64,000 bases of DNA from Bdellovibrio sp. (GCA_036676395.1 JAKFCY010000002.1:2560001-2624000), one strand, 5' to 3'; positions 961 to 59,218 are shown, counted from the first letter of the stretch. Notes: generated by a model from the sequence alone, not told the origin. Made by a program: numbers and translations.

Positions 961-3900
961 GGACATATTCCTGTTGTCGTCACACAGTACTTACCTACAC
1001 CCGACAAACCATTTTGTCTGGTTGGAAAATACACTTGCTGCTTATTATAATCCCAAGAAATTGAATTTCCGTCACATGTAAAAAACTTTTTACCTGTACT
1101 ACTGGTCGGTAGTGGCAAGTTTGTTTCTACTCCGGTAGTTAAATTCTTTTTGTTTAATGTACCATCAGTTGCACAGTAATAGACTTCGTACTGGCTTGAT
1201 GCGTTTTTCTTATATGTAAACGAACGAATTCCTTTTGCCGTTGTGGCAAAAACCGAAGACATCCCCGCACCGATAATCATATCTGAACCGTCACGCGATA
1301 GGGCTGCTTTAATAATTTTTGCGTATCCTGGATTTGCCATCAACACAGCTCGCTCTTCTTTCAAATAAATCGAAGACGTTGTTTGGTGACCCCAGTTAGG
1401 CATATAGATGCTATCACTGATATCTACATTTTCTTCAAAAATTGGATGTCCTTGACAAGTCGGATTGGTAGCTGCACCCATAAATTTACGAACTGTACCA
1501 CTTGTTGATTTAAATATTTTTGCATGTTGATCGACATGACATGCCCCATTCCAACGTTGCGTCCAGGCTATCAAATAAGCCTCACTAGTTCCATTTTCGA
1601 CAGCGTAAGTTCCAATTGTACTTCCGTCCGGAACCATGATCCCGTGAAGAACTAAAGGATAACCATTCATTGAAATGTTTCGGCCTTCGACACCATTAGC
1701 AGCAGCACTTAAAAAAGCGGTTCCGCCAGCACCAAGTACCAGTTTCCATTTACCGGCTTTACCTGTAGCTACGTCTCTTTCATATTTAACAACAATTCCA
1801 TTACGAGTCAGTGACGCATAGAATGTTCCGTCGCGCGGATCAACTTGTACACCTTGAATACCGCCCCAGAATTCGTTGGCAAATGACGATGCGGATGCAG
1901 CATTGGTTGAATAACGATTGACCGACGGAGCTTCAAAAGAAACGCCTTCATCCGTGTAATTACCAGCTAAGCGTGAGATTACGCCAGCATCACCTTGCGT
2001 AATTTCACGCACATTAAATTCTTTATTATCGGCAGCAACAACAGTGTCACTGGCTCCCCAAACACCTAAATAGTTTACACCATTCATTCGCGCAGCTAAT
2101 GGCGAAGCGCCATCACCGGCAGATTTTCTTTCACCAAACAGAGTTTTTAATTTACCATCTGGTAAAATTACGCGGATTTGTCCGGCATCATTAAAATAAA
2201 CTGTATTGGTTGCATCAACAAACGCATCGATACCTGAAATATTACATGAGGCTGCGGTGCCACCATCGGCACAATAACCTTGGGTTTGCCCGCCGACCAC
2301 TGTGTTCCACTGGTTTGTCGCTACATTGTATTTACCTAATTTAAACGGATAATGGGCACCTAACCAATAAACAGCGCCACGACGTGAAGCAAACATTTGC
2401 GTTTCCCAGTAAGCATAATTTGGTGCATGCGTTCCATAACCCACACTCACCCCATTACGCGCATTGAAATTAGCCACGTGATGACCACAACCGCCCGGTA
2501 CAGGAAAACAAATATATGATGTTAAAAACTCTGGTTGCGAAGTTCTGTAATTGAACGACAAGGCAATAGTGCGTACATAATCTGTCGTAAAGATATATTC
2601 TGGGTCGCCGTATTTACCTTTGCCAGATAGTTTCATAAAATAAACTTTATCTTCAGCCGCTTTATAGATACCCATCGTATAATCTACTACTCGCGCCGTC
2701 GGACTGCCCAGCGTAAACCAAATATTTCCGTTCGGTAATACCTGGAATAAGGTGTACATGTTCATTGAAGTTGAAAATTTTAAACTTTTTGCAAGAACGG
2801 CTTTGGTGTATGTCGTAACAGTACCGCCACCAATAATCGTGTTGATCGTACCGTCAGCTTCAACGCGACGAATGCGGTCGCCGTCAAAAATTAACAGACG
2901 ATCTTTGTAATCAACGGTGATTTTTCCGTTACCGATCGTTGTTGCTGAGGTTGCTTGGCCGCCATCGCCAGTTTTAGCGCTGCCTTTGGCTACGAAAACT
3001 TTTTGCACGCCATCGACCGGATCTACTAATAAGACTCCGCGTGTGGCATCCATGAAATAAACTTTACCTTTTGACGTTACCGCTAAAGTACCAAAATCAC
3101 CCGGAACGTCAGCTGCACGAACGACTGATAAGAAAATCGCTTTATTTGCCGAGCCGTTAATACCTAAATCAGTATTACCCGCAACAATTGAAAACTTTTC
3201 TGTATTCAATGCCGGTGTGGCACTTAATGAAACTAAACCCGATTGATCTTTTACTTTGATCTGAATTTTAAAATATTTATCTGTTGGCGCAGGAATACGG
3301 CGACAGCCGGTGAAGTTACCATCAATGGTACATCCCACTGGCGTATTCGTGATATCTTGCATATTCGGAACTTCAATGAAGGTTTCTTCATCTAATGTAT
3401 AATATAAACTAATTGGGGCTGTTAATAAGTCTGAATCTGTGACTTTCCAACGAATAAATAAATCTTGGTTCTGCACAAACGTTGTTTGCTCTTTTGTCGG
3501 AGATAAAGATGATGAATCATTCGTTGAACCGATCATATTTGTAATTGTTGGAGCTACCGCTGGGTTGTACGCGATTGTAACCTGGTCAACATTTTCAGCG
3601 CCTGATCCAGCTGTTAAACCCGAAATGTTTCCGGCAAAATCCATCGCCCAAACACTGATTTTATAAGTGTTTTGCACGAAGCCGACGAAGGTAGAAATAT
3701 CTGTTTTGATTAATGACTTGGCAGCCGTATCTTCTAAATCCTGCCAGCAGGTATCATCTGCATTGGGCGCGATAAGATCAAAAGCTTTTACGCAAACAAA
3801 TTTAATAACCGTGGTTGTATCAGAAGCAGCAATTCGAGTTTCAAAGAAACTGCGATTCACTACTTTAGCTACCGTTGGGTCACTAACACTGCCAACACTG

Positions 3901-4463
3901 ACAACGCCAAGGGCGCCGGCAGTTAAACCGAAAAAATTAATCGTAGGAGCCGTGCCATCAACAGTGAAAGTGCGTGATGACTGGGTCGCGATTGTTTTAT
4001 TAGCGGCATTTGTTGCTGTCGCTCTGATTAAATATCCGATGCCATCTGGTTGAAATGCAGGGGCTACGGCCCAGTCAAATGAACTTTCTGCACCGGCAAC
4101 ACTTGGTAAAGCGCCAGCACCAGTGATCGTTGTCCATGTTGTTCCGCTGTTTGTTGAAAATTCTAATTTTACTGTGTAAAGCCCCGGATCCACTGCACCA
4201 TCGGCTTCAGAAGTTCCTGATACAATTTGATATTTAATTTTATGAGTCATGTCTGATTTGTAATATGGCCAAGTCGTGTCACGGTCACCATCGGTGAACG
4301 TCACCAGATTTAGCCCTGGAACTAAAATTTTTGCCGGATCCCATTCGTCAAAATCAGAGTCTCCCACAGGAGCTTCTGCTGACTGAATCATAGGATCAGT
4401 AATTTCAGCCTGACAGCTGAACAAAGTAGATAATAAAAAGCAGATCAATAAAATCTTTTTCAT
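957..4463 (-). CDS. Large lipoprotein with Ig-like N-terminal part and NHL/teneurin-like beta-propeller repeats
   Basis: Start refined to ATG 4463 (SD GGAAGGT; MKKILLICFLLSTLFSC lipobox). Motifs GDGGQATSA, RIRRVEADGTINTIIGGG and GDGASPLAARMN are typical of NHL-repeat proteins. Confidence 0.75.
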   Translation of the reverse strand: MKKILLICFLLSTLFSCQAEITDPMIQSAEAPVGDSDFDEWDPAKILVPGLNLVTFTDGDRDTTWPYYKSDMTHKIKYQIVSGTSEADGAVDPGLYTVKLEFSTNSGTTWTTITGAGALPSVAGAESSFDWAVAPAFQPDGIGYLIRATATNAANKTIATQSSRTFTVDGTAPTINFFGLTAGALGVVSVGSVSDPTVAKVVNRSFFETRIAASDTTTVIKFVCVKAFDLIAPNADDTCWQDLEDTAAKSLIKTDISTFVGFVQNTYKISVWAMDFAGNISGLTAGSGAENVDQVTIAYNPAVAPTITNMIGSTNDSSSLSPTKEQTTFVQNQDLFIRWKVTDSDLLTAPISLYYTLDEETFIEVPNMQDITNTPVGCTIDGNFTGCRRIPAPTDKYFKIQIKVKDQSGLVSLSATPALNTEKFSIVAGNTDLGINGSANKAIFLSVVRAADVPGDFGTLAVTSKGKVYFMDATRGVLLVDPVDGVQKVFVAKGSAKTGDGGQATSATTIGNGKITVDYKDRLLIFDGDRIRRVEADGTINTIIGGGTVTTYTKAVLAKSLKFSTSMNMYTLFQVLPNGNIWFTLGSPTARVVDYTMGIYKAAEDKVYFMKLSGKGKYGDPEYIFTTDYVRTIALSFNYRTSQPEFLTSYICFPVPGGCGHHVANFNARNGVSVGYGTHAPNYAYWETQMFASRRGAVYWLGAHYPFKLGKYNVATNQWNTVVGGQTQGYCADGGTAASCNISGIDAFVDATNTVYFNDAGQIRVILPDGKLKTLFGERKSAGDGASPLAARMNGVNYLGVWGASDTVVAADNKEFNVREITQGDAGVISRLAGNYTDEGVSFEAPSVNRYSTNAASASSFANEFWGGIQGVQVDPRDGTFYASLTRNGIVVKYERDVATGKAGKWKLVLGAGGTAFLSAAANGVEGRNISMNGYPLVLHGIMVPDGSTIGTYAVENGTSEAYLIAWTQRWNGACHVDQHAKIFKSTSGTVRKFMGAATNPTCQGHPIFEENVDISDSIYMPNWGHQTTSSIYLKEERAVLMANPGYAKIIKAALSRDGSDMIIGAGMSSVFATTAKGIRSFTYKKNASSQYEVYYCATDGTLNKKNLTTGVETNLPLPTSSTGKKFFTCDGNSISWDYNKQQVYFPTRQNGLSGVGKYCVTTTGICP

Positions 4464-4465
4464 AA

Positions 4466-6283
4466 TTACCTTCCTATACACCTAACTGCGTAACTAAAAC
4501 TGCGTTCATCTTTGCTGCGCGTGCCAGTTGTCGGATCAAATAGCCAAGCTTTTAATCTATCTGTCGAATCAACGGTGGCTGTCCACTCTTGACCAGAGGT
4601 ATTTGCATTAAGTGCATCAGGCATTACAAAACGAAGACCATCATGGTTTGCCACCATGTAATCGTAAATCGATGGCAGACGCCATTTAGCTTTCGGAGTA
4701 GTTGTTCTATCAAGACCGGCTTTACCGGCATTATCGATATCTGTATCTGTCGATGAAAAACCTATGGCATCTTCACAGGCACTGATTGGACTGGCTGATT
4801 GAATTTGATAGAATGAATTATCACAAATATCATTTGGATCATCTTCATTGTAGTTTCCGGCCACAATATTTGATTCTACTGAATTTGAACTTCCAGAAGC
4901 TTTACACCAGTTTATTCCTGCTGAAACAACACTGCTCCACATTAAACCTGTTGATTGATCTTGCCAAACTTCGCGGCCTTTACCAGCAGAGACATCTCCG
5001 GTACGAGTCACCAATTTCCATTGGCCTTCGCCGTTGTGGCCCTTTGAGGCTCCATCCCATGTTGCGTTCGCACCGAAAACAGTTGCGCAATCTGCGATTC
5101 TTAATCCGATTGAAGCTTGCGCTGTTCCGCAAGTTGTTGCGGCCCAGCCCGTGCGATCAACTAACGTCACTTGTGTCGTTAAGTTATAAGCATCATCACT
5201 TGAAGCAATTCGTGGAACCGGATGATAATAAGAAGGAAGCACCGTGGCCGAGGCTGCTGAATATGTTGTTGTTTCAGAAACATAAGTTAAAACATTAACC
5301 GTGGTTGAAGTCGTGCGCGACATTCCCGAACCCCACTCTGTTAATACACCCGTGAATGAGCCGGCAACTCCAAAAATAGTTTCACTCACGCGGATATTGC
5401 CCGCGATTAAATTTGCATCGACAACATTTTTATTGGCCGCAAACCAACAACTACCCACATTATTTGAAGTACAAAGGGTATTACGACCACCATATTCAGT
5501 TGTATAAACATATTTTGGCGGCGAAATCACGCATGATCCGCCATTGTAACCATCAGCACAGGCAATCGCACTGCGAACATAGGTATTCGGTTGATTTGTC
5601 CAACAAGGAGCCGCGTTCGGTACGTTTAAGGTACAATTTAATGAACGCCCGCCGTACTCAGAGTTATACCAGTAATTGCTGGCTGCAACCACGCAGGCCG
5701 TACTAATAATACCTTCAGCTGTACAATTAGCGATCGTTACAGAATCAGAAATAATATATCTGCCAGTGATTGGTAACCAACAAGGCGCCGTCAATTCAAC
5801 GTCTTCAACGCAAATATTACTGCGTCCGCCGTACTCTTCATCATAAACGAAATTACCGGTTTCAGCCTTACATGAAGCGCCGATTAAACCTTCGCTATCA
5901 ACAACACCTGGTGCTGTACATAATGGAAAAGATGAACCGGTTTGATCACCGGTCACGCCAAAAATAGTCGTGCCGCTTTGGATATTTGAAGATTGCAGAT
6001 CAGTATCAACTACAGTAGCAGTTCGGCCATCATACCAACCAACCGGCAGAGCACGTGTTAAAGAACCATCTGCAGTCGTTAAATTTGTACCTTCAGTTGT
6101 ACGCCCACCGTATTCAGCGTTATAAACATATTTACTAGCCATTACTACGCAAGGTTCAGTCGTGGTGATAACGCCTTCATCACACTCAGTCAGATCTAAA
6201 AGAGATGATTCATCGATTTCGAATTTCGAACATCCCAACGAGAACATAAACATTGTAAGTAAAAGTAATATATATATTTTCAT
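4466..6283 (-). CDS. Cys-rich lipoprotein with four YxYxxxYGGR repeats and a C-terminal DUF1566 (Lcl/C-lectin-like) domain
   Basis: Start refined to ATG 6283 (MKIYILL...SLGC lipobox). VWQDQSTGLMW, WRLPS, EWTAT, AWLFD and VRCIGR are DUF1566 hallmarks. Confidence 0.75.
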   Translation of the reverse strand: MKIYILLLLTMFMFSLGCSKFEIDESSLLDLTECDEGVITTTEPCVVMASKYVYNAEYGGRTTEGTNLTTADGSLTRALPVGWYDGRTATVVDTDLQSSNIQSGTTIFGVTGDQTGSSFPLCTAPGVVDSEGLIGASCKAETGNFVYDEEYGGRSNICVEDVELTAPCWLPITGRYIISDSVTIANCTAEGIISTACVVAASNYWYNSEYGGRSLNCTLNVPNAAPCWTNQPNTYVRSAIACADGYNGGSCVISPPKYVYTTEYGGRNTLCTSNNVGSCWFAANKNVVDANLIAGNIRVSETIFGVAGSFTGVLTEWGSGMSRTTSTTVNVLTYVSETTTYSAASATVLPSYYHPVPRIASSDDAYNLTTQVTLVDRTGWAATTCGTAQASIGLRIADCATVFGANATWDGASKGHNGEGQWKLVTRTGDVSAGKGREVWQDQSTGLMWSSVVSAGINWCKASGSSNSVESNIVAGNYNEDDPNDICDNSFYQIQSASPISACEDAIGFSSTDTDIDNAGKAGLDRTTTPKAKWRLPSIYDYMVANHDGLRFVMPDALNANTSGQEWTATVDSTDRLKAWLFDPTTGTRSKDERSFSYAVRCIGR

Positions 6284-51427: not shown

Positions 51428-51633
51428 GTGTTGAATACCACGATGTGTTTTCCTTATTTAACACTATTAGTCTATTTTCTGATCATAACTTCCGCAAACA
51501 TTTCTGGGTAAACCTAGACAAGATTTCGTATGTTTACGAAGACCAAAGTCGGTAACCTCGACCAAGGTATTTCGCAAGCTACTAAATATCTAAGTATTTA
51601 GCCATAATCAGATTTGTCGAAGGTGGTTATCGC

Positions 51634-53448
51634 ATGAAGTGGTTGAATCGTTGGTTCTCGTTTTCTTGGAAGAAGTTGGTGTTGGTTGTCTCGCTTGTAC
51701 CTTTGATGTGGTTTTTTCATGGTCTCGATTTCCCTAAAGTTGATATGTTTTCGAGAGATGTACTCCAATTTTTAAACGATAACTCGAATGTCGAAAAATC
51801 CATCGTCACGATCAATATGAATTTAAAAAACGAACAATTTAAACGTCCATTTGAATTCGAGTCTTTTAAAACTTTAGTTGATACTCTCCTGAAGCAAAAT
51901 CCAAAAAATTTAATACTATGCTTTTCTCCGAGAGAATTCACTGGTGATGATACTCACGAGGACATTCGCCAAAAAGTTCTCAATTATCTACTCCCGCTTA
52001 AAAATGTCTATCTATATTCCCAAAGTTCAAATGATAAACATGATCCCAACACAGACCGTATATTCGAAAAATTTCCAAGAATATTTTTATTAACAATGCC
52101 ATTTGATAATTCGGGCGGAAGAAAACGTCGACGGGCTATTGTTTGGTTTGAAACAGTGGGCATTGCTACTGAATTCGCAGAAATGCAGAAGTTAGGATTT
52201 CAAACTAAAAATCATACCGATTTTCCATATGGCTGGCATTATTGGAAAACGATTCAACCCTATATAAAAACTTTTAAACAAGATTCTTTTGGCTCGCATG
52301 ACGCTTATGAAGTTATAGATACAAATTTTAAAGATGTTAATGTCGAAGGAAAAACCGTAATTCTTGGCTCGATTGACGAATTTGCAATGCTTGGAACTGA
52401 ATCAATTTTTAATTTATACTCTAAAATTGGAACTCCTGGATATAAAGATTTTCCGCCTGCTGACTCGCTAGCCAACTATATGAATTTTTATATTCATGGT
52501 GATTACATAAAGCTAATTTCTAACTTTAACGATTTGATACTATTTGGTTTTGTATTAATAATCCTGATTTTCATCAATATTGAAACTAGAAAGAAATTAT
52601 ATATCCTGTTATCACTCATTCCGTTGATCGCAGTATGTACTCTAATCCTTTACATCGTGGATAGTTATTACATTAATTTCTCCCGTAGTATTACTGCGCT
52701 ATTTTTCATTCAGTATCTTGGCATTCCAATTATTATGTTTGCTATGTTTAAAGAACAAGAAACAAAGAAATTGCAAGAAATCAGCGATGCAAGGATAGAT
52801 GCCTTACTCACAGTTTCAGAAAAGGTTGCACATGATATTCGCTCACCACTTTCCGCAATAAATCTGGTAATGCACAAAGTGAATTTCGACGATCCAGAAT
52901 ATAAAGAAATCTTTGACAGCGCTGTTCAGCGAATAGACGAAACCGCGACCAAAATTCTTACTCGTTACAGAACAAAAACAGGCAGTGAGAATGAACCCGT
53001 CGAACAAATTGATCTTGCTGAAATTATATCTTCAATAACTAAAGAGAAAAAAATTCTAAATACAAAAGTTGAATTCGAATTAGTTATTAATTCAGAAACC
53101 ACAACAGCTTTAGGATTAAAATTAGATCTAGAACGCATTATCAGTAACATTTTAGATAATTCAATCTTCGCACTTCAAAGCATCTTAGAACCCAGAATTT
53201 TTATTTCAACAGATTCACATGACAACATGATTCGGGTAGGCATCACAGATAATGGCACAGGAATTCCCGATCAAATTTTGAAACTTTTAGGTACAACCCG
53301 CATTACAACGAAAGCAGACACCAACCAAGGTAACGGCATTGGAATTTTACATGCTAAGCGAGTTATCGAACGACTGAACGGTCGATTTGAAATCTCTTCG
53401 GCTGAACATGTCGGAACAACGATCAAAATCAGTTTACCAAAAGCCTAG
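51634..53448 (+). CDS. Sensor histidine kinase with a divergent CHASE2-like periplasmic domain
   Basis: N-terminal TM, VEGKTVILGS (CHASE2-like), three TMs, H-box VAHDIRSPL, N-box NILDNS, DNGTGI, GNGIGI. Confidence 0.85.
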   Translation: MKWLNRWFSFSWKKLVLVVSLVPLMWFFHGLDFPKVDMFSRDVLQFLNDNSNVEKSIVTINMNLKNEQFKRPFEFESFKTLVDTLLKQNPKNLILCFSPREFTGDDTHEDIRQKVLNYLLPLKNVYLYSQSSNDKHDPNTDRIFEKFPRIFLLTMPFDNSGGRKRRRAIVWFETVGIATEFAEMQKLGFQTKNHTDFPYGWHYWKTIQPYIKTFKQDSFGSHDAYEVIDTNFKDVNVEGKTVILGSIDEFAMLGTESIFNLYSKIGTPGYKDFPPADSLANYMNFYIHGDYIKLISNFNDLILFGFVLIILIFINIETRKKLYILLSLIPLIAVCTLILYIVDSYYINFSRSITALFFIQYLGIPIIMFAMFKEQETKKLQEISDARIDALLTVSEKVAHDIRSPLSAINLVMHKVNFDDPEYKEIFDSAVQRIDETATKILTRYRTKTGSENEPVEQIDLAEIISSITKEKKILNTKVEFELVINSETTTALGLKLDLERIISNILDNSIFALQSILEPRIFISTDSHDNMIRVGITDNGTGIPDQILKLLGTTRITTKADTNQGNGIGILHAKRVIERLNGRFEISSAEHVGTTIKISLPKA

Positions 53449-53478
53449 TACTAAAGTCCTAACGGTTTACATAAACTC

Positions 53479-53521
53479 AAGTAACTTCCGCAAGTTACTT
53501 TCAATTGGCTCTAGTATTGCT
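53479..53521 (+). promoter_or_regulatory. sigma54 promoter of the rSAM-peptide operon with an adjacent 9-bp inverted repeat
   Basis: TTGGCTCTAGTATTGCT at 53505-53521 (GG-N10-GC, TTGC); AAGTAACTT-CCGC-AAGTTACTT at 53479-53500. Confidence 0.7.
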
Positions 53522-53554
53522 ATTCTAATTTAGATTGAATAACTGAGAGACAAA

Positions 53555-54889
53555 ATGAAACCAATAGAACTGCGCCGACATAATGAAATTATCGCATTTA
53601 GAGCTGAGGACGACTCCCTTGTAGCTCTGCATGGTTTTAATATGGAAGTCGCAGAAATTAGTGAGGAATCATTTGCTCAAATGACACCGATTTCAATCTC
53701 TACAGGTGAAATTCCTGATGTCAAACTTCCAGACAACCATGAAGAAAAGGAAGCATTCGACGCATTGAGAGAATGGAACGCAGAAGAAAATCCAAATGCT
53801 AAAAGTGGAAAATTAGAGTTCGGAATTCGCTCAATTAATTTAAATGTAAACCAAATTTGTAATTTAAAATGTGCCTATTGCGCTGCCGGCGGCGATGGAA
53901 CTTACGGCGAACCCATGAATAAAATCTCGATCGAAAAAACCCTACCGCAACTCAAATTTTTCTTAATGCAGCTAAAGCCCGGTCAGAAATTTCGCGTGAT
54001 TATTATCGGTGGTGAGCCCCTTTTATATCCAGAAGCTATAAAGGCTGTGCACGACTATTTAATGTCAGAAGCGCCAAGCCGCGGAATTATCCCAAGACTT
54101 AGCATTGTGACAAACGGAACACTTCTTAACGGTAAAACTCTCGAGTTAATCCGCTCATTAAAAATCGAAATCAAAATTAGTCTCGATGGCGCTAAAGAAA
54201 TAAATGATGTTGTTAGACCAAGTAAAAACAATTCTAGCTCAACAGACCAAACAGTAGCTGGGATCGCTGAGTTAGCAAAAGATCGCGGTAACGTAACTAC
54301 ATGGGGAATCTCAGCGATCAGCACTTCAAAAAATCCAGAAACACTTTTAGCGTATCGTTATTTAAGAAGCTTAAATCCTGATTGGTTAGAATTTCATTTC
54401 GATGTTGGTGAGAAGTCGCAAGAACTTCAAGACAAACATATTGAACAAATGAACCTGATTGCTGCTGAAGCCTGGAAAATTGGTGGCGAAAAAGAACTCA
54501 GAAAAATAGCTCAGTTTGATCAAATTTTTCATCTTTTAGATAGCCAGCTTCGCCTTGAAAACCACTGTGGTGCTGGAAAAACTTACTTAATGGTCGACGC
54601 CAAAAACAAGATGTATCCTTGTGTTTGGGAGGCTGGCGACAAGGAGCAAGTTGTTGGTCAAAATGAACAACTCGACCATGCCAAGCTATCTAACTATTCA
54701 AAATCTCTTATAGAACTTAATAATTGCCAAACCTGCTGGGCTAGACACTTTTGCGGTGGCGGTTGTATGTATATCAATAAGCTCAATAATGGCAGTAAGC
54801 ATGTAAAAGATAAAATGTTCTGTGAACGTACGAGAAGCTTGCTTTTGCCTATTATTTCGTATTATAAATTAGCTAGGTCTGCGGAATAA
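53555..54889 (+). CDS. Radical SAM/SPASM peptide maturase (CteB/ScfB/anSME-like)
   Basis: CNLKCAYC, GGEPLL, VTNGTLL, ISLDG; seven-Cys SPASM HCGAG...YPC...CQTCWARHFCGGGC...FC; ~90-aa N-terminal extension in the position of an RRE. Confidence 0.92.
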   Translation: MKPIELRRHNEIIAFRAEDDSLVALHGFNMEVAEISEESFAQMTPISISTGEIPDVKLPDNHEEKEAFDALREWNAEENPNAKSGKLEFGIRSINLNVNQICNLKCAYCAAGGDGTYGEPMNKISIEKTLPQLKFFLMQLKPGQKFRVIIIGGEPLLYPEAIKAVHDYLMSEAPSRGIIPRLSIVTNGTLLNGKTLELIRSLKIEIKISLDGAKEINDVVRPSKNNSSSTDQTVAGIAELAKDRGNVTTWGISAISTSKNPETLLAYRYLRSLNPDWLEFHFDVGEKSQELQDKHIEQMNLIAAEAWKIGGEKELRKIAQFDQIFHLLDSQLRLENHCGAGKTYLMVDAKNKMYPCVWEAGDKEQVVGQNEQLDHAKLSNYSKSLIELNNCQTCWARHFCGGGCMYINKLNNGSKHVKDKMFCERTRSLLLPIISYYKLARSAE

Positions 54890-54906
54890 AGCCGCAGGGG
54901 GAATAT

Positions 54907-54990
54907 ATGAAAAAACATATCAAAAAAGTTAAAGCTCAAGAAGTTAGCGAAAAGCCGATTAAAGAACCGGGCTGCTCACCTATGAAATAG
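54907..54990 (+). CDS. 27-aa putative RiPP precursor peptide MKKHIKKVKAQEVSEKPIKEPGCSPMK (not in ORF track)
   Basis: SD AGGGGGA just upstream of ATG; starts 17 nt after the rSAM stop and fills the gap before the next kinase; SCIFF-like MK(K)HIK leader; single Cys near the C-terminus. Confidence 0.8.
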   Translation: MKKHIKKVKAQEVSEKPIKEPGCSPMK

Positions 54991-55004
54991 CTTGTGATTT
55001 TCTC

Positions 55005-56867
55005 TTGGAAGCATCACAAAAACTTGAACTTAAGTATTTAATTCTACGTACAATTTTCGCAATCGCCGTCGGCGTCCTTATCTCAGCATTTAATTTAGAT
55101 TTTATCGAAGGCTACCTGGTTGATTTTCGTATCCAAGCAAAAGCTTTTCTTGGGTTAGCAAAACCAAAAAACCCACAAGTTGCGATCGTATTAATTAACT
55201 TCAAAACAGTTGAAAAATATCAACGCCAACCTAACTTTCCTGATCACATCAAGTTTCTCAATCAACTCTCTGGATTAAACCCGAAATTTATCGTTTATGA
55301 GTTCAGAACAAGCGATGAAGAATTTTTAGAAATCAGTGGAACCTACAAAGAAAAACAAGAATTTGCAGATCAAATTAAAAGTTTTTCGAATCTTCATTTC
55401 TCAACTCAAAATTTAACTATTAAAGGTGAAACAGAAGAGTTTCGCCTTAAAGCTCCTTTAGACGAAATTAAATTCTCATCTATGCCTTTTACTGCTGATG
55501 GAAAATCATTCGGTAAAGATGGAGTTTCACGTCGCCTAATGTATCAATATCAGGATCAAGCAATGGTCCAACCTCGGATCGCTGCCTTCTATAATCCAGA
55601 GATTCAGAATCCAGAAAAGATCAGAGGAAACTTTTATTATTTAGAGTCATATCAAACTTATATTGATTATCACCCCGTTGGCTCATTTCCGACATATGCC
55701 TTTGAAGATGTCGTCGATGGCAAAGTTCCTAAAGATGCTTTCGAAGGTAAAGTAGTTATTGTGGGTTCAGATCTAGGTAAAGACCCCGATGACTATGCTT
55801 CTACTCCATATAATCGCCATTTCAGTGGTATGACTAAGACCGAACTTCAAGCCAATCAGATTCAAACTCTCATAGATAACAGTGCCCCACTTAAACCACA
55901 TCGTGCTGTTAATATTGCTATCGTTATTTTAATTTCATTCTTAACTCTCTACGCTACTTTATCTCTTACCCCAGCACGCGGTCTTTTAATCTTAGGCGGT
56001 ACTTTATTTGGGCTAGGCGTAATTTCTATTTTAGCATTTAGCGTTTTCGGTATCTGGTTCGATCTTTCGCATCCATTTCTAGCAATCTTCCTCTGCTACT
56101 ACTTCTTCATCCCCTACCGTCTTATCCGAGAAAACCGCAAGAGCTGGGAATACTACCAAAAGCATAAACTACTCTCTGAAGTCGAAGAGCTTAAAACAAA
56201 CTTCATCTCAATGATGTCGCACGATCTAAAGACTCCTATCGCGCGTATTACCGGCATGACTGAAGTAATCTACAAAGACCCACAGCAACTATCGTCTCAC
56301 CAAAGAGAAGCGCTGGACACGATCAGACATAGCTCTGACGATCTATTAAAATTCATCAACGCTATCCTTCAGTACGGAAGCATCGAAAGCCAAGGCGTTC
56401 AGTTACACAAACAAGCTAAAGATCTTAATCAGCTTCTAGCCGACGTCGTGAAGAAACACCAATTTCTAGCTAATGTTAAAAAGATCAAGATCATCCAAGA
56501 GCTTGAGCCGATGTTTCCTACCCAAGTAGACCCAGAGCTTATTAAACAAGTGTTTTCGAACTTACTCGAAAATGCGATTAAGTACTCTCCTGAAGAATCT
56601 ACCGTCTGGGTGCGTAGCCGCGAAGGCGACGATACTATAATAGTAGAGTTTCAAGATCAGGGTATGGGGATTCCGCCATCTGATCTTCCGAATATTTTCA
56701 TGAAATTCTTTCGTACCCACACGGTTAAGACCACAACCATTAAAGGTTCTGGCTTAGGGCTTTATTTAGCCCAGTACTTCGTAGAATTGCATAAGGGTAA
56801 AATCACGGTCGATAGCTCGCCTGAACGAGGCTCTAAGTTCACCGTTGAGCTTCCATTAGACAAATAA
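55005..56867 (+). CDS. CHASE2-domain sensor histidine kinase
   Basis: DGVSRR, FEGKVVIVGS, STPY, ELQANQIQTL (CHASE2), three TMs, SHDLKTPI, NLLENAIKYS, DQGMGI, GSGLGL. Confidence 0.93.
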   Translation: MEASQKLELKYLILRTIFAIAVGVLISAFNLDFIEGYLVDFRIQAKAFLGLAKPKNPQVAIVLINFKTVEKYQRQPNFPDHIKFLNQLSGLNPKFIVYEFRTSDEEFLEISGTYKEKQEFADQIKSFSNLHFSTQNLTIKGETEEFRLKAPLDEIKFSSMPFTADGKSFGKDGVSRRLMYQYQDQAMVQPRIAAFYNPEIQNPEKIRGNFYYLESYQTYIDYHPVGSFPTYAFEDVVDGKVPKDAFEGKVVIVGSDLGKDPDDYASTPYNRHFSGMTKTELQANQIQTLIDNSAPLKPHRAVNIAIVILISFLTLYATLSLTPARGLLILGGTLFGLGVISILAFSVFGIWFDLSHPFLAIFLCYYFFIPYRLIRENRKSWEYYQKHKLLSEVEELKTNFISMMSHDLKTPIARITGMTEVIYKDPQQLSSHQREALDTIRHSSDDLLKFINAILQYGSIESQGVQLHKQAKDLNQLLADVVKKHQFLANVKKIKIIQELEPMFPTQVDPELIKQVFSNLLENAIKYSPEESTVWVRSREGDDTIIVEFQDQGMGIPPSDLPNIFMKFFRTHTVKTTTIKGSGLGLYLAQYFVELHKGKITVDSSPERGSKFTVELPLDK

Positions 56868-57006
56868 ACACACTATAAACACAGCCCTAGAGCTTCTGCT
56901 CGCTAAGTAAACAATTCCTAGCTGGTGTCATTTTGCTTTTTTCGGTGTTCATTCGCTTAAAACTTGTGCTATACCCTACGACATATCGCTTACGGGGGAA
57001 TTATAT

Positions 57007-58578
57007 ATGTTAAAGGTTTTAGTTGTTGATGACGACCAAGCTCTACGCTTTTCGATCCGCTCTGCCTTAGAAGCTACTCGCAGATTCTCTATTGAAGAGG
57101 CTTTCGATGGCGTCAACGCTTTAGAAAAAGTTAAAGCCACTGATAGCACTAAACGTATCTATGACATCGTCATTCTTGATGTGGATATGCCGCGCATGAA
57201 CGGCTTAGCCGCACTTAAAGCGATTAAAGAATTCGATCCAGGCATTATCGTCTTAATGTTAACTGCACACGCGACGGTAGAAGCCGCTGTAGCAGCCGTT
57301 AAAGACGGAGCTTACAACTTTTTATCTAAACCAATCTCGGGTGATGATCTTACAGCCTTAATCGACAGAGCCATCAACGCTCACCGAATGATTTCGAACT
57401 TAGCCGTATCTTCACCGGTGTTTGTTGATGAAGGCCGTAAAATCATCGGTAACACTTCGCAAATGCAAAAAGTTTTTAACGTGATTCATAAGCTTGCTAA
57501 AGTTGATACCCCGGTATTAGTGCGCGGAGCTTCAGGAACAGGTAAAGAGCTTGTTGCTAAAGCCATCCACTTTAACAGCGCCCGTAAAGATGAAAAATTC
57601 GTGGCGATCAACTGTTCGGCGATTCCTGAGAATTTATTTGAATCTGAATTATTTGGTCACGAAAAAGGATCGTTTACTGGTGCTGACCAACGTAAAATCG
57701 GAAAGTTTCAATTTGCTGAAGGCGGAACTTTATTCTTAGATGAAGTTGGCGACATGCCACAGTTGATGCAAGTTAAAATCTTACGTGTATTACAAGAAAA
57801 ATTATTTACTCCGGTTGGATCAAATCGCGAGATTCCTACAAACGTAAGAATTATCGCAGCGACAAACCGTCCGTTAGAAAAAATGATGGAAGAAGGCCGC
57901 TTTCGTGAAGACTTATTCTATCGTTTAAATGTTGTACCTATTATTTTACCTCAGTTAAATGACCGCAAAGATGATTTAGATGTTTTAATTAATATCTTCA
58001 TCAAAAAATTTAACGTAGCTCACGGTAAAAAAATTAATGGCTTAACCAAAGATGCACTTGATGCAATGAAACGTTATAACTGGCCAGGAAATATCCGTGA
58101 ATTAGAGAACGTGATCGAACATTCTTTCGTTCTTGAATCAGGAAATCAGATCACTTTAGGAAGCTTACCAGAAGCGGTTTTGATGGCTGCTGGAATCAGT
58201 TTAATCGACCAAATGGATAAGATTCAGAGTCAATCAGAAACTATGAAGCAAATGAACGGCGCAACTGCTGTAAACATGGGCGTGACAGATTCTGACGACG
58301 ACGATGATTTATCTATTGACGCAGATTCTGAAATCGATGGCGATGATGAAATTGACGGCGAAGTGATCGGCCTAAGTGTTTCACCAAATGGCTTACTTGA
58401 TTTCAATGCACAAAAAGAAGAGTTCGAAAAACAGTTTATTATCAAGGCCTTGAAAACATTTAAAGGCAAAATTAATCAAACAGCATTGCACGCAAACATT
58501 CCGAAAAAGACTTTATTACGTAAAATTGAAAAGTACGGAATCGTGGCGAAAGAATATGCAAAAGTTGATCTTGATTAA
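57007..58578 (+). CDS. sigma54-dependent response regulator (NtrC family: REC-AAA+-HTH)
   Basis: VVDDD...LDVDMP receiver; GASGTGKE; ESELFGHEKGSFTGA; FLDEVG; WPGNIRELEN; C-terminal Fis-type HTH. Confidence 0.95.
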   Translation: MLKVLVVDDDQALRFSIRSALEATRRFSIEEAFDGVNALEKVKATDSTKRIYDIVILDVDMPRMNGLAALKAIKEFDPGIIVLMLTAHATVEAAVAAVKDGAYNFLSKPISGDDLTALIDRAINAHRMISNLAVSSPVFVDEGRKIIGNTSQMQKVFNVIHKLAKVDTPVLVRGASGTGKELVAKAIHFNSARKDEKFVAINCSAIPENLFESELFGHEKGSFTGADQRKIGKFQFAEGGTLFLDEVGDMPQLMQVKILRVLQEKLFTPVGSNREIPTNVRIIAATNRPLEKMMEEGRFREDLFYRLNVVPIILPQLNDRKDDLDVLINIFIKKFNVAHGKKINGLTKDALDAMKRYNWPGNIRELENVIEHSFVLESGNQITLGSLPEAVLMAAGISLIDQMDKIQSQSETMKQMNGATAVNMGVTDSDDDDDLSIDADSEIDGDDEIDGEVIGLSVSPNGLLDFNAQKEEFEKQFIIKALKTFKGKINQTALHANIPKKTLLRKIEKYGIVAKEYAKVDLD

Positions 58579-58672: not shown

Positions 58673-59218
58673 ATGACAGTTAACCCGTTGCCTCCTCAAG
58701 CTTATACCAAAGATACTTTACAGAAAGCGTATTCGTGGCTGTTGTCACAATCGTCTTCTGTTAAAGAAATGGCGCAAGATCAAAATATGTTGGTCAGCCT
58801 TTATCTAAAAGCACAACGTAATGGGGATGCTGTTCTTGAAACTCCAAGCATTCAAAATTTCAAACAAGAATTAAAATCGTTAGCTAACATGATGGGTGAT
58901 TTTCAATCGCCGCAACAGTTAGCTACAGCGGCTTCGCACATGCACGCCCCAGCACATAAACATGCGCCAACAATCCATTCGCATGCTTCGCAAACCAATG
59001 CGACAGCTACCGCAGCAGCGGTTTCTACGTCGCATGTCACGACGACGACGGTTAGTCAGTCGCGTGTATCAACTGATATGAATGCAAATGGTTTTGATCA
59101 AAAAACTTTAGAGGCTATTCAGCAAGTGCGTGAAACTTTTAACTTAAGTTCTGATGCTGAAGCGATCCGCGCCTTAGTGGCGTTAGGAATTAAACAATTC
59201 CGTAAATCTGGTTTATAA
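58673..59218 (+). CDS. Hypothetical cytoplasmic protein
   Basis: 181-aa ORF with His/Ala/Thr-rich linker; C-terminal FNLSSDAEAIRALVALG resembles a ribbon-helix-helix-type helix pair (tentative). Confidence 0.7.
   Translation: MTVNPLPPQAYTKDTLQKAYSWLLSQSSSVKEMAQDQNMLVSLYLKAQRNGDAVLETPSIQNFKQELKSLANMMGDFQSPQQLATAASHMHAPAHKHAPTIHSHASQTNATATAAAVSTSHVTTTTVSQSRVSTDMNANGFDQKTLEAIQQVRETFNLSSDAEAIRALVALGIKQFRKSGL

Follow-up and report, generated by a model that had tools for sequence, protein, structure and literature searches.

Several described systems resemble parts of the locus reported here. In the SCIFF/thermocellin system, the radical S-adenosylmethionine (rSAM) enzyme CteB, with an N-terminal domain like a RiPP recognition element (RRE; RiPP, ribosomally made peptide that carries post-translational modifications), an rSAM core and a SPASM domain with two auxiliary clusters, is encoded beside its short precursor CteA; the locus holds no transporter or protease, and SCIFF is nearly universal in the Clostridia. 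PapB (freyrasin) and QhpD are rSAM/SPASM enzymes forming Cys-to-Asp/Glu thioethers, QhpD acting on an enzyme subunit and not on a free peptide, and anSME, of the same fold class, uses the sulfatase motif C/S-x-P/A-x-R. The agr system (AgrD-AgrB-AgrC-AgrA) and the quorum-regulated streptide operon are conceptually alike in keeping a precursor, a modifying enzyme, a membrane kinase and a regulator together, under a promoter that may be controlled by the regulator. Positively autoregulated sigma-54 two-component operons of the NtrB/NtrC type combine a -24/-12 promoter and rpoN with an activator of receiver-AAA+-HTH architecture that has a GSFTGA loop. Here we describe a locus of Bdellovibrio sp. 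(assembly GCA_036676395.1) with likenesses to each of these. It occupies positions 51634-58578 of JAKFCY010000002.1:2560001-2624000, a stretch of 64,000 nucleotides (nt) called the window below, and comprises a histidine kinase gene (HK1), a sigma-54 type promoter, the genes of an rSAM/SPASM maturase and of a 27-aa peptide, a CHASE2 kinase gene (HK2) and the gene of an NtrC-type activator. We propose, with a probability of roughly 60%, that it represents a sigma-54-dependent, autoregulated two-component operon of Bdellovibrionales carrying a RiPP pair.

The initial annotation of the window had listed five co-oriented genes and a -24/-12 promoter in this interval, and all six elements were found there, on the + strand (Table 1). 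The peptide gene is flanked by gaps of only 17 nt on the rSAM side and 14 nt on the HK2 side, and no terminator-like site was found on the + strand between the rSAM and activator genes. According to the operon model, HK2 would sense an extracytoplasmic cue and phosphorylate the activator, which would remodel the sigma-54 holoenzyme at the -24/-12 promoter 5' of rSAM, so that maturase, peptide, kinase and activator would rise together in a positive autoregulation. The RRE-like N-terminal domain of the maturase would bind the Lys-rich leader of the precursor, K-H-I-K-K-x-K-P, and the enzyme, with three Fe-S clusters, would modify the lone Cys, most likely to a thioether or, alternatively, to formylglycine. 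The genes, the motifs, their conservation and their co-occurrence are the observations from which we infer co-transcription, the acting activator, the chemistry and the feedback; it is plausible that the activator driving the rSAM promoter is the adjacent one.

We compared the locus with the best 80 rSAM loci of the database, of which 79 bear Bdellovibrionales names and the remaining one comes from a metagenome-assembled genome mislabelled as Streptomyces; 78 were analysable, the other two ending at a contig edge. The 27-aa open reading frame (ORF), which the initial annotation had paired with the rSAM enzyme, proved to have counterparts throughout. A small ORF was present directly 3' of rSAM in 20/20 loci, the window's own included, and in all 78 analysable loci (70 by script, 8 by inspection). 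In the window it is preceded by a strong ribosome site, AGGGGGAA, and codes for the Lys-rich leader MKKHIKKVK and a core, GCSPMK, with a single Cys. Peptide length ranges from 27 to 92 aa. The leader is shared, with a variable linker and tail, and conservation is 90% or higher in alignment columns A2, I5, K6, C27 and P29. A single Cys occurs in 77 of 79 peptides and C-x-P in 71, with C-x-P-x-R in 13 and C-x-P-x-[RK] in 20 of them. The tail C-terminal to the Cys has 3-12 residues, four of them in 32/79 peptides. The precursors therefore differ from those of SCIFF, which are recognised by a length of about 45 aa and six Cys in the C-terminal half and have another leader, and, unlike the substrates of PapB and QhpD, they show neither a repeated C-X3-D motif nor an acidic acceptor at fixed spacing. 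Neither Pfam nor NCBIfam gave a match to the precursor. From sequence comparison, we regard it as near certain that the maturase and the 27-aa ORF, a genuine precursor gene, form a RiPP pair.

Two loci deserve separate mention. At L097:8241-8566, two tandem precursor genes lie 3' of one rSAM, with cores …GLGCVPVGIR and …GLECAPLGAS. B. bacteriovorus Bd16 (L100) has the same cassette with a 31-aa peptide; its rSAM protein is XGC80396.1 and its activator XGC80398.1. The single number between these two accessions would go to the kinase, so the peptide seems to have been left without annotation in that record. By clustering, the proteins of Bd16 group with those of B. reynosensis and not with HD100.

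The maturase matched Pfam Radical_SAM with an E-value of 3.4e-15. The motif C102-x3-C106-x2-C109 and all seven SPASM cysteines (C338, C356, C391, C394, C400, C404 and C423) are invariant in sets of 12 and of 46 sequences. Against NCBIfam, the enzyme scored best with PapB (158 bits, cut-off 340), followed by the nif11 maturase (151 bits, cut-off 519), the SCIFF maturase (120.6 bits, cut-off 425), QhpD (105 bits, cut-off 453) and anSME (79 bits, cut-off 349). The PDB sequence search put CteB, the SCIFF thioether synthase (5wgg), on top with an E-value of 1.9e-44, and anSME (4k37) next with 4.5e-14. An AlphaFold (AF2) model made from 46 sequences reached a predicted local distance difference test (pLDDT) of 93.2. 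In the Foldseek search with this 444-aa model, CteB came first, with a template modelling (TM) score of 0.77-0.82 over 458-472 alignment columns; anSME and ChlB gave 0.63-0.67 by query length over 377-395 columns, the value of anSME being 0.76-0.79 by target length. The N-terminus of the model exhibits strands at 6-9, 12-16, 22-26 and 31-34 and helices at 37-41 and 62-76, and its first 76 residues are predicted to form an RRE-like leader-recognition domain. CteB and the enzyme have this domain in common, as they do the rSAM core and a SPASM domain carrying two auxiliary clusters. By sequence and modelled fold, the enzyme is best described as a new subfamily of CteB-type RiPP maturases. Kinship to CteB, PapB and QhpD makes a thioether the most likely modification of the Cys.

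The rSAM gene is present in 32/36 genomes of the genus and in 6/24 other genomes of the order. Across the phylum the family was found in 47 of 301 genomes, among them 36/37 of the Bdellovibrionaceae, the family of the window, and members of some other families of the order. The closest relatives are Pseudobdellovibrio and Bdellovibrio, the nearest named isolate being Bdellovibrio sp. qaytius with 67% rSAM identity. The host is a Gram-negative aerobic predator, unlike those of SCIFF, and the pair, again unlike SCIFF, is part of a sigma-54 operon that also encodes a CHASE2 kinase and an NtrC-type activator. The database names of 820 rSAM homologues are generic only. Two doubtful matches outside the order were set aside: L149 is a different SPASM protein (25% identity) and L150 a 1.1-kb contig fragment.

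HK2 contains the Pfam domains CHASE2 (PF05226, 4.3e-21), HisKA and HATPase_c, with CHASE2 between the first transmembrane segment (TM1) and three further ones. The activator matched Sigma54_activat at 5.5e-72 and has a Walker A motif, the GSFTGA loop, the receiver aspartate and a Fis-type HTH_8. In these parts it resembles NtrC, from which it is set apart by its score with the NtrC equivalog (413 bits, cut-off 559); the CHASE2 sensor and the RiPP pair as first operon genes distinguish the locus further from the NtrB/NtrC operons. HK2 lies 3' of the rSAM-peptide pair in 78/78 loci and the activator 3' of HK2 in 64/66, and the order rSAM-peptide-HK2-activator is kept in families of the order at 32-40% rSAM identity. 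The neighbourhood comparison of rSAM homologues that the initial annotation had suggested thus showed the peptide, CHASE2 kinase and activator to be linked across the order. The two exceptions are an inversion of the IleRS, 181-aa protein and activator genes in L088, where the activator is divergent yet adjacent to rSAM, and L091, in which a P-type ATPase gene stands 3' of HK2 and the activator is not adjacent. In L088, rSAM, peptide and HK2 stay together and a metallo-beta-lactamase (MBL)-fold gene is now 3' of HK2. This MBL-fold neighbour was considered as a possible peptidase and rejected as a member of the module, as it is missing from many rSAM-bearing loci.

Table 1. Features of the locus, with positions counted from the first nucleotide of the window.
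Feature	Position	Strand	Description
HK1	51634..53448	+	604 aa; accessory histidine kinase with a diverged CHASE2-like sensor; lineage-specific
Inverted repeat AAGTAACTT-CCGC-AAGTTACTT	53479..53500	+	perfect 9-bp repeat, just 5' of the -24 element
Sigma-54 type -24/-12 promoter TGGCTCTAGTATTGCT	53506..53521	+	fits TGGC-N7-TTGC
CteB-like radical SAM/SPASM peptide maturase	53555..54889	+	444 aa; Pfam Radical_SAM
Precursor peptide gene MKKHIKKVKAQEVSEKPIKEPGCSPMK	54907..54990	+	27 aa; homologues 3' of rSAM across loci
HK2, CHASE2 sensor histidine kinase	55005..56867	+	620 aa; Pfam CHASE2, HisKA, HATPase_c
NtrC-type sigma-54 activator	57007..58578	+	523 aa; Response_reg, Sigma54_activat, HTH_8
Conserved 181-aa protein	58673..59218	+	directly 3' of the activator; membership in the unit uncertain

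The promoter ends 33 nt 5' of the rSAM start codon. Upstream regions of 74 loci were scanned with two patterns. The strict one, TGGC-N7-TTGC[AT], was found within 300 nt of the rSAM start in 30/74 loci, the background in the same loci being 0.002 per 330 nt, and the relaxed one, GG-N8-TTGC[AT], within 200 nt in 63/74 against a background of 0.025 per scanned segment. In five close relatives, the block CTTTCAATTGGCTCT-N3-ATTGCTATTCTA is near-invariant with diverged flanking sequence, and one of the five has no HK1 gene upstream. The genome contains rpoN, and the activator carries the parts of a bacterial enhancer-binding protein (bEBP). The -24/-12 promoter noted at first in the window is thereby a conserved element, and transcription of the rSAM-peptide pair is likely to be sigma-54-dependent. 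Genome-wide, the strict pattern occurs 67 times, so several activators are probably at work. The sigma-54-like 16-mer TGGCTTCGAAATTGCA occurs three times on the minus strand of a very short contig (C7, 2156 nt), at 47, 222 and 575, which suggests a repeated element.

Two kinds of element could be regulator sites. In the 3.4-Mb genome there are exactly two copies of the 12-mer TAACTTCCGCAA, one at 51486-51497, in the intergenic region before HK1, and one at 53482-53493, inside the 9-bp inverted repeat just before the -24 element; the 12-mer may be a regulator site common to HK1 and rSAM. The inverted repeat itself could be a regulator site or the stem of an HK1 terminator. In more distant lineages, the palindrome GTGTC-N5-GACAC was found near the rSAM start, close to the sigma-54 promoter, in 12/73 loci (L071-L076, L087, L095, L109, L111 and L113 among them), and also 5' of HK2 in the rSAM-less L137, L145 and L148. 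The window does not contain this palindrome, which in the lineages that have it is a candidate for the site bound by the activator.

We searched for HK2 in 40 genomes of the order, 30 of them without rSAM. Full-length orthologues with 37-48% identity were present in 26 genomes, 10 with and 16 without rSAM. These 16 of the 30 rSAM-less genomes keep HK2 and the activator between PBP1 and IleRS; the gene order is the same in these loci, with HK2 and the activator and, in most cases, the 181-aa neighbour and IleRS, and the region 5' of HK2 is occupied by other genes or by almost nothing. A peptide hidden Markov model (HMM) found nothing in the 16 loci (best E 3.7), and it recovered held-out peptides at E<=0.023 in 8/10 loci with rSAM; the occurrence of the peptide is therefore coupled to that of the enzyme. 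Since HK2 and the activator are kept where both are missing, the kinase does not need the peptide. The strict sigma-54 promoter is present 5' of HK2 in 7/16 rSAM-less loci, which is what one would expect if the two-component operon is autoregulated. In a tree built from 76 HK2 sequences, four changes are required to account for where rSAM is present, and well-supported branches force two of these. Such distributions indicate that the core of the locus is the HK2-activator pair, which is older and retained in more genomes; the rSAM-peptide pair appears to be an add-on between the promoter and the kinase gene, gained or lost as a unit several times.

Some rSAM-less loci have further genes near HK2. 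In 4/16 (L133, L139, L140 and L141), there is, 68-94 nt 5' of HK2, a Lys-rich, Cys-less small ORF preceded by a good ribosome site, and in two of them (L140:5287-5364 and L141:6406-6489, coordinates of the HK2 strand) it is 3' of a strict sigma-54 promoter. These ORFs may be remnants or relatives of the precursor; being unrecognised by the peptide HMM, whose best E-value was the 3.7 given above, they were not counted as homologues. L134 (oriented) encodes a different, 499-aa radical SAM protein with CNFKCSHC at 3431-4930, on the strand opposite HK2 and about 1.5 kb upstream.

A number of findings weigh against the operon model or parts of it. As to the chemistry, no acceptor residue at a fixed spacing from the Cys is conserved among the 79 peptides, the enzyme reaches no curated NCBIfam family cut-off, and Pfam detected neither PqqD/RRE in residues 1-95 nor SPASM in the C-terminal 109 aa. 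As to the regulation, synteny across the order extends to the entire block from PBP1 to IleRS; the linkage is therefore in part vertical inheritance and weaker evidence than it looks. The gap between HK2 and the activator is 139 nt in the window compared to about 10 nt in many Bdellovibrio loci, and the activator could consequently have its own promoter. No GG-N8-TTGC[AT] was found within 200 nt of the rSAM start in 11/74 loci. Finally, a general activator site was not definable, the 12-mer being kept in one relative only (L021) and the palindrome being restricted to its 12 of 73 loci.

The missing acceptor, taken together with the C-x-P core, makes oxidation of the Cys to C-alpha-formylglycine a live alternative, by which the product would be an aldehyde-bearing peptide and not a thioether ring. 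C-x-P is the sole conserved feature of the core, and in its longer form, C-x-P-x-R, the core resembles the sulfatase motif used by anSME, which is also a clear relative in the sequence search and in fold by target length. Arg at +4 is however confined to a minority of the peptides, and the substrates of anSME are sulfatases, not peptides of 27-92 aa. The best sequence relatives of the enzyme, PapB, the SCIFF maturase and QhpD, are thioether formers and all score above anSME, and the best full-length structural match is CteB, including the N-terminal leader-binding domain that anSME does not have. We judge formylglycine to be an improbable product, and the thioether remains the modification assumed in the operon model.

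The synteny of the block also bears on the reading that the rSAM-peptide pair and the two-component system are unrelated neighbours, held together by gene order only, with another activator acting at the promoter. The 67 strict promoter matches, with the several activators they probably imply, and L091, where the activator is displaced, agree with it. Against this stand the short gaps around the peptide gene and the absence of a terminator between it and HK2, the position of the promoter, which stands 5' of rSAM in loci that have this gene and 5' of HK2 in loci that lack it, and an adjacency that outlasts the inversion of L088 and holds across families at the low rSAM identities given above. 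Mere neighbourhood is therefore very improbable in our estimate, far behind the operon model.

The initial annotation had gone beyond an operon and had proposed an autoinducing loop, in which the modified peptide, exported or released within the prey, binds the CHASE2 domain of HK2, and possibly of HK1, and drives its own operon. The gene order rSAM-peptide-kinase-activator does resemble that of peptide-pheromone operons. The rSAM-peptide-HK2 adjacency in 78/78 loci, maintained through the L088 inversion, and the sigma-54 promoter before the whole unit, with the pair strictly between promoter and kinase gene, are what such a loop would lead one to expect. The agr likeness has its limits: the present locus has no AgrB-like protease/exporter and no thiolactone chemistry, its sensor is a periplasmic CHASE2 and not a polytopic AgrC, its regulator is a sigma-54 bEBP and not a LytTR protein, and the kinase-regulator pair occurs without the peptide in 16 genomes. 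A precedent is given by SCIFF-derived ranthipeptides, for which a signalling role in clostridial quorum sensing has been reported (Chen et al. 2020, as cited in PMC8102284). In favour of the loop one may also cite the statement of a 2016 paper that the signals of CHASE2 domains were unknown (PMC5192318).

A complex was predicted between residues 33-298 of HK2, its outside domain, and the unmodified full-length 31-aa peptide of the closest relative, L041. It scored 0.34 (runs of 0.02, 0.34 and 0.47), and the best of three controls scored 0.00. The mark used is reached by 116/157 solved complexes and by 2/215 mismatched pairs; at scores of 0.60 or below, only 18 of the 157 solved complexes are found, together with both passing mismatches. 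The runs agree in at least 3% of the contacts, and the partner has a pLDDT of at least 39. This is a weak pass, of a kind rated more often wrong than right unless the guess is likely beforehand, and it was obtained with a peptide lacking the modification.

Other findings oppose the loop. The 16 genomes with HK2 and the activator in place have neither rSAM nor a detectable peptide, and of the outside-domain columns with a conservation of 90% or more among genomes having rSAM, the rSAM-less ones retain 85%, the value for the cytoplasmic part being 92%. The HK2 tree implies at least two to four gains or losses of the pair. HK1 is not conserved. The initial annotation had also remarked that no transporter or leader peptidase lies in the locus, and this was confirmed: Pfam and NCBIfam gave no such family in the 12 neighbouring ORFs, nor a signal sequence in the locus, and genome-wide there is a single match to a C39 peptidase, of borderline score (21.7 bits, in a 324-aa frame 1.66 Mb away). 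Of the claim that the peptide is the CHASE2 ligand, what stands is the weak predicted complex, 0.34 against 0.00 for the control, and what tells against it is the kinase kept in peptide-less genomes. We therefore hold the autoinducing loop to be unlikely, if still worth considering. Its boldest form, in which the modified one-Cys peptide would be the natural CHASE2 ligand closing a self-amplifying sigma-54 loop, with the kinase rewired in lineages that lost the pair, seems to us more doubtful again.

If the peptide does not act back on HK2, it would be a regulated output: the kinase would respond to another cue and the peptide would act elsewhere, as a cytoplasmic regulator, in a cofactor-like role or as an agent against prey or competitors. 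We consider this tentatively as a real possibility, somewhat short of an even chance. It accords with a kinase-activator pair that is older than, and independent of, the rSAM-peptide pair, with a strict coupling of peptide and enzyme to each other and not to the kinase, and with the lack of export and processing genes in the locus. The post-Cys core varies in length and sequence over its 3-12 residues, as in many RiPP products, and the near-universal presence in Bdellovibrionaceae (36/37 genomes) is similar to that of SCIFF in its own taxon. Such an output would on the other hand leave the constant place of the pair between promoter and kinase gene unexplained, no candidate target is known, and the weak pass of the predicted complex leans the other way. 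Both this reading and the autoinducing loop fall within the operon model.

HK1 had been counted in the initial annotation as a part of the circuit. Pfam detected only HATPase_c in it (6.8e-17) and no CHASE2, even at E<=10. Its topology is that of HK2, with one transmembrane segment, about 260 outside residues and three further segments, followed by an H-box and HATPase_c. The two kinases align collinearly by BLASTP with 22% identity (E 4e-18), and a profile of seven HK1 orthologues matched the CHASE2 region of HK2 by hhalign with 99.7% probability (E 2.9e-25, 339 columns). On the strength of this profile match, the matching topology and the collinear alignment, HK1 is to be seen as a diverged CHASE2 paralogue of HK2. 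It is upstream of rSAM and co-oriented in 3/20 wide loci and directly upstream in 3/80 database loci, and weaker relatives elsewhere are few and mostly on the opposite strand. The CHASE2-like nature of HK1 was in this way upheld, and its membership in the conserved module was not; by its distribution HK1 is a lineage-specific extra kinase outside that module.

Downstream of the activator, the 181-aa protein is syntenic in most loci, whether rSAM is present or not. Its N-terminal 80 residues are conserved and its middle part is a low-complexity Ala/Thr/His sequence. No Pfam or NCBIfam family matched it at E<=0.01, with only sub-cut-off matches at E<=10, and its nearest atlas clusters are hypothetical proteins found in Bdellovibrionota only. 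The stretch that separates HK2 from the activator has two near-repeats, GGTGTCAT and GGTGTTCAT, at 56918-56950 of the window, and it also contains a -24/-12-like element, TGGTGTCATTTTGCT, with a spacing one base too short.

A full-text literature search on Bdellovibrio with rSAM, CHASE2 and sigma-54, covering papers other than subscription papers and supplements, gave no description of the locus. With a precursor that has no model match and a maturase below all curated cut-offs, the RiPP family is, as far as these family models go, undescribed. To our knowledge and by the literature search, descriptions of peptide natural products or of cell-cell signalling in Bdellovibrionaceae are few. Tiny peptide genes of this kind are easily missed in annotation, and B. 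bacteriovorus, which has the same cassette, is genetically tractable. The locus is thus a testable candidate for two questions, what CHASE2 domains sense and whether obligate predators use peptide signals. If the modified peptide were indeed the ligand of HK2, it would be the first one for the widespread CHASE2 domain, and the resulting loop would let Bdellovibrio-type predators sense their own density or state in or on the prey.

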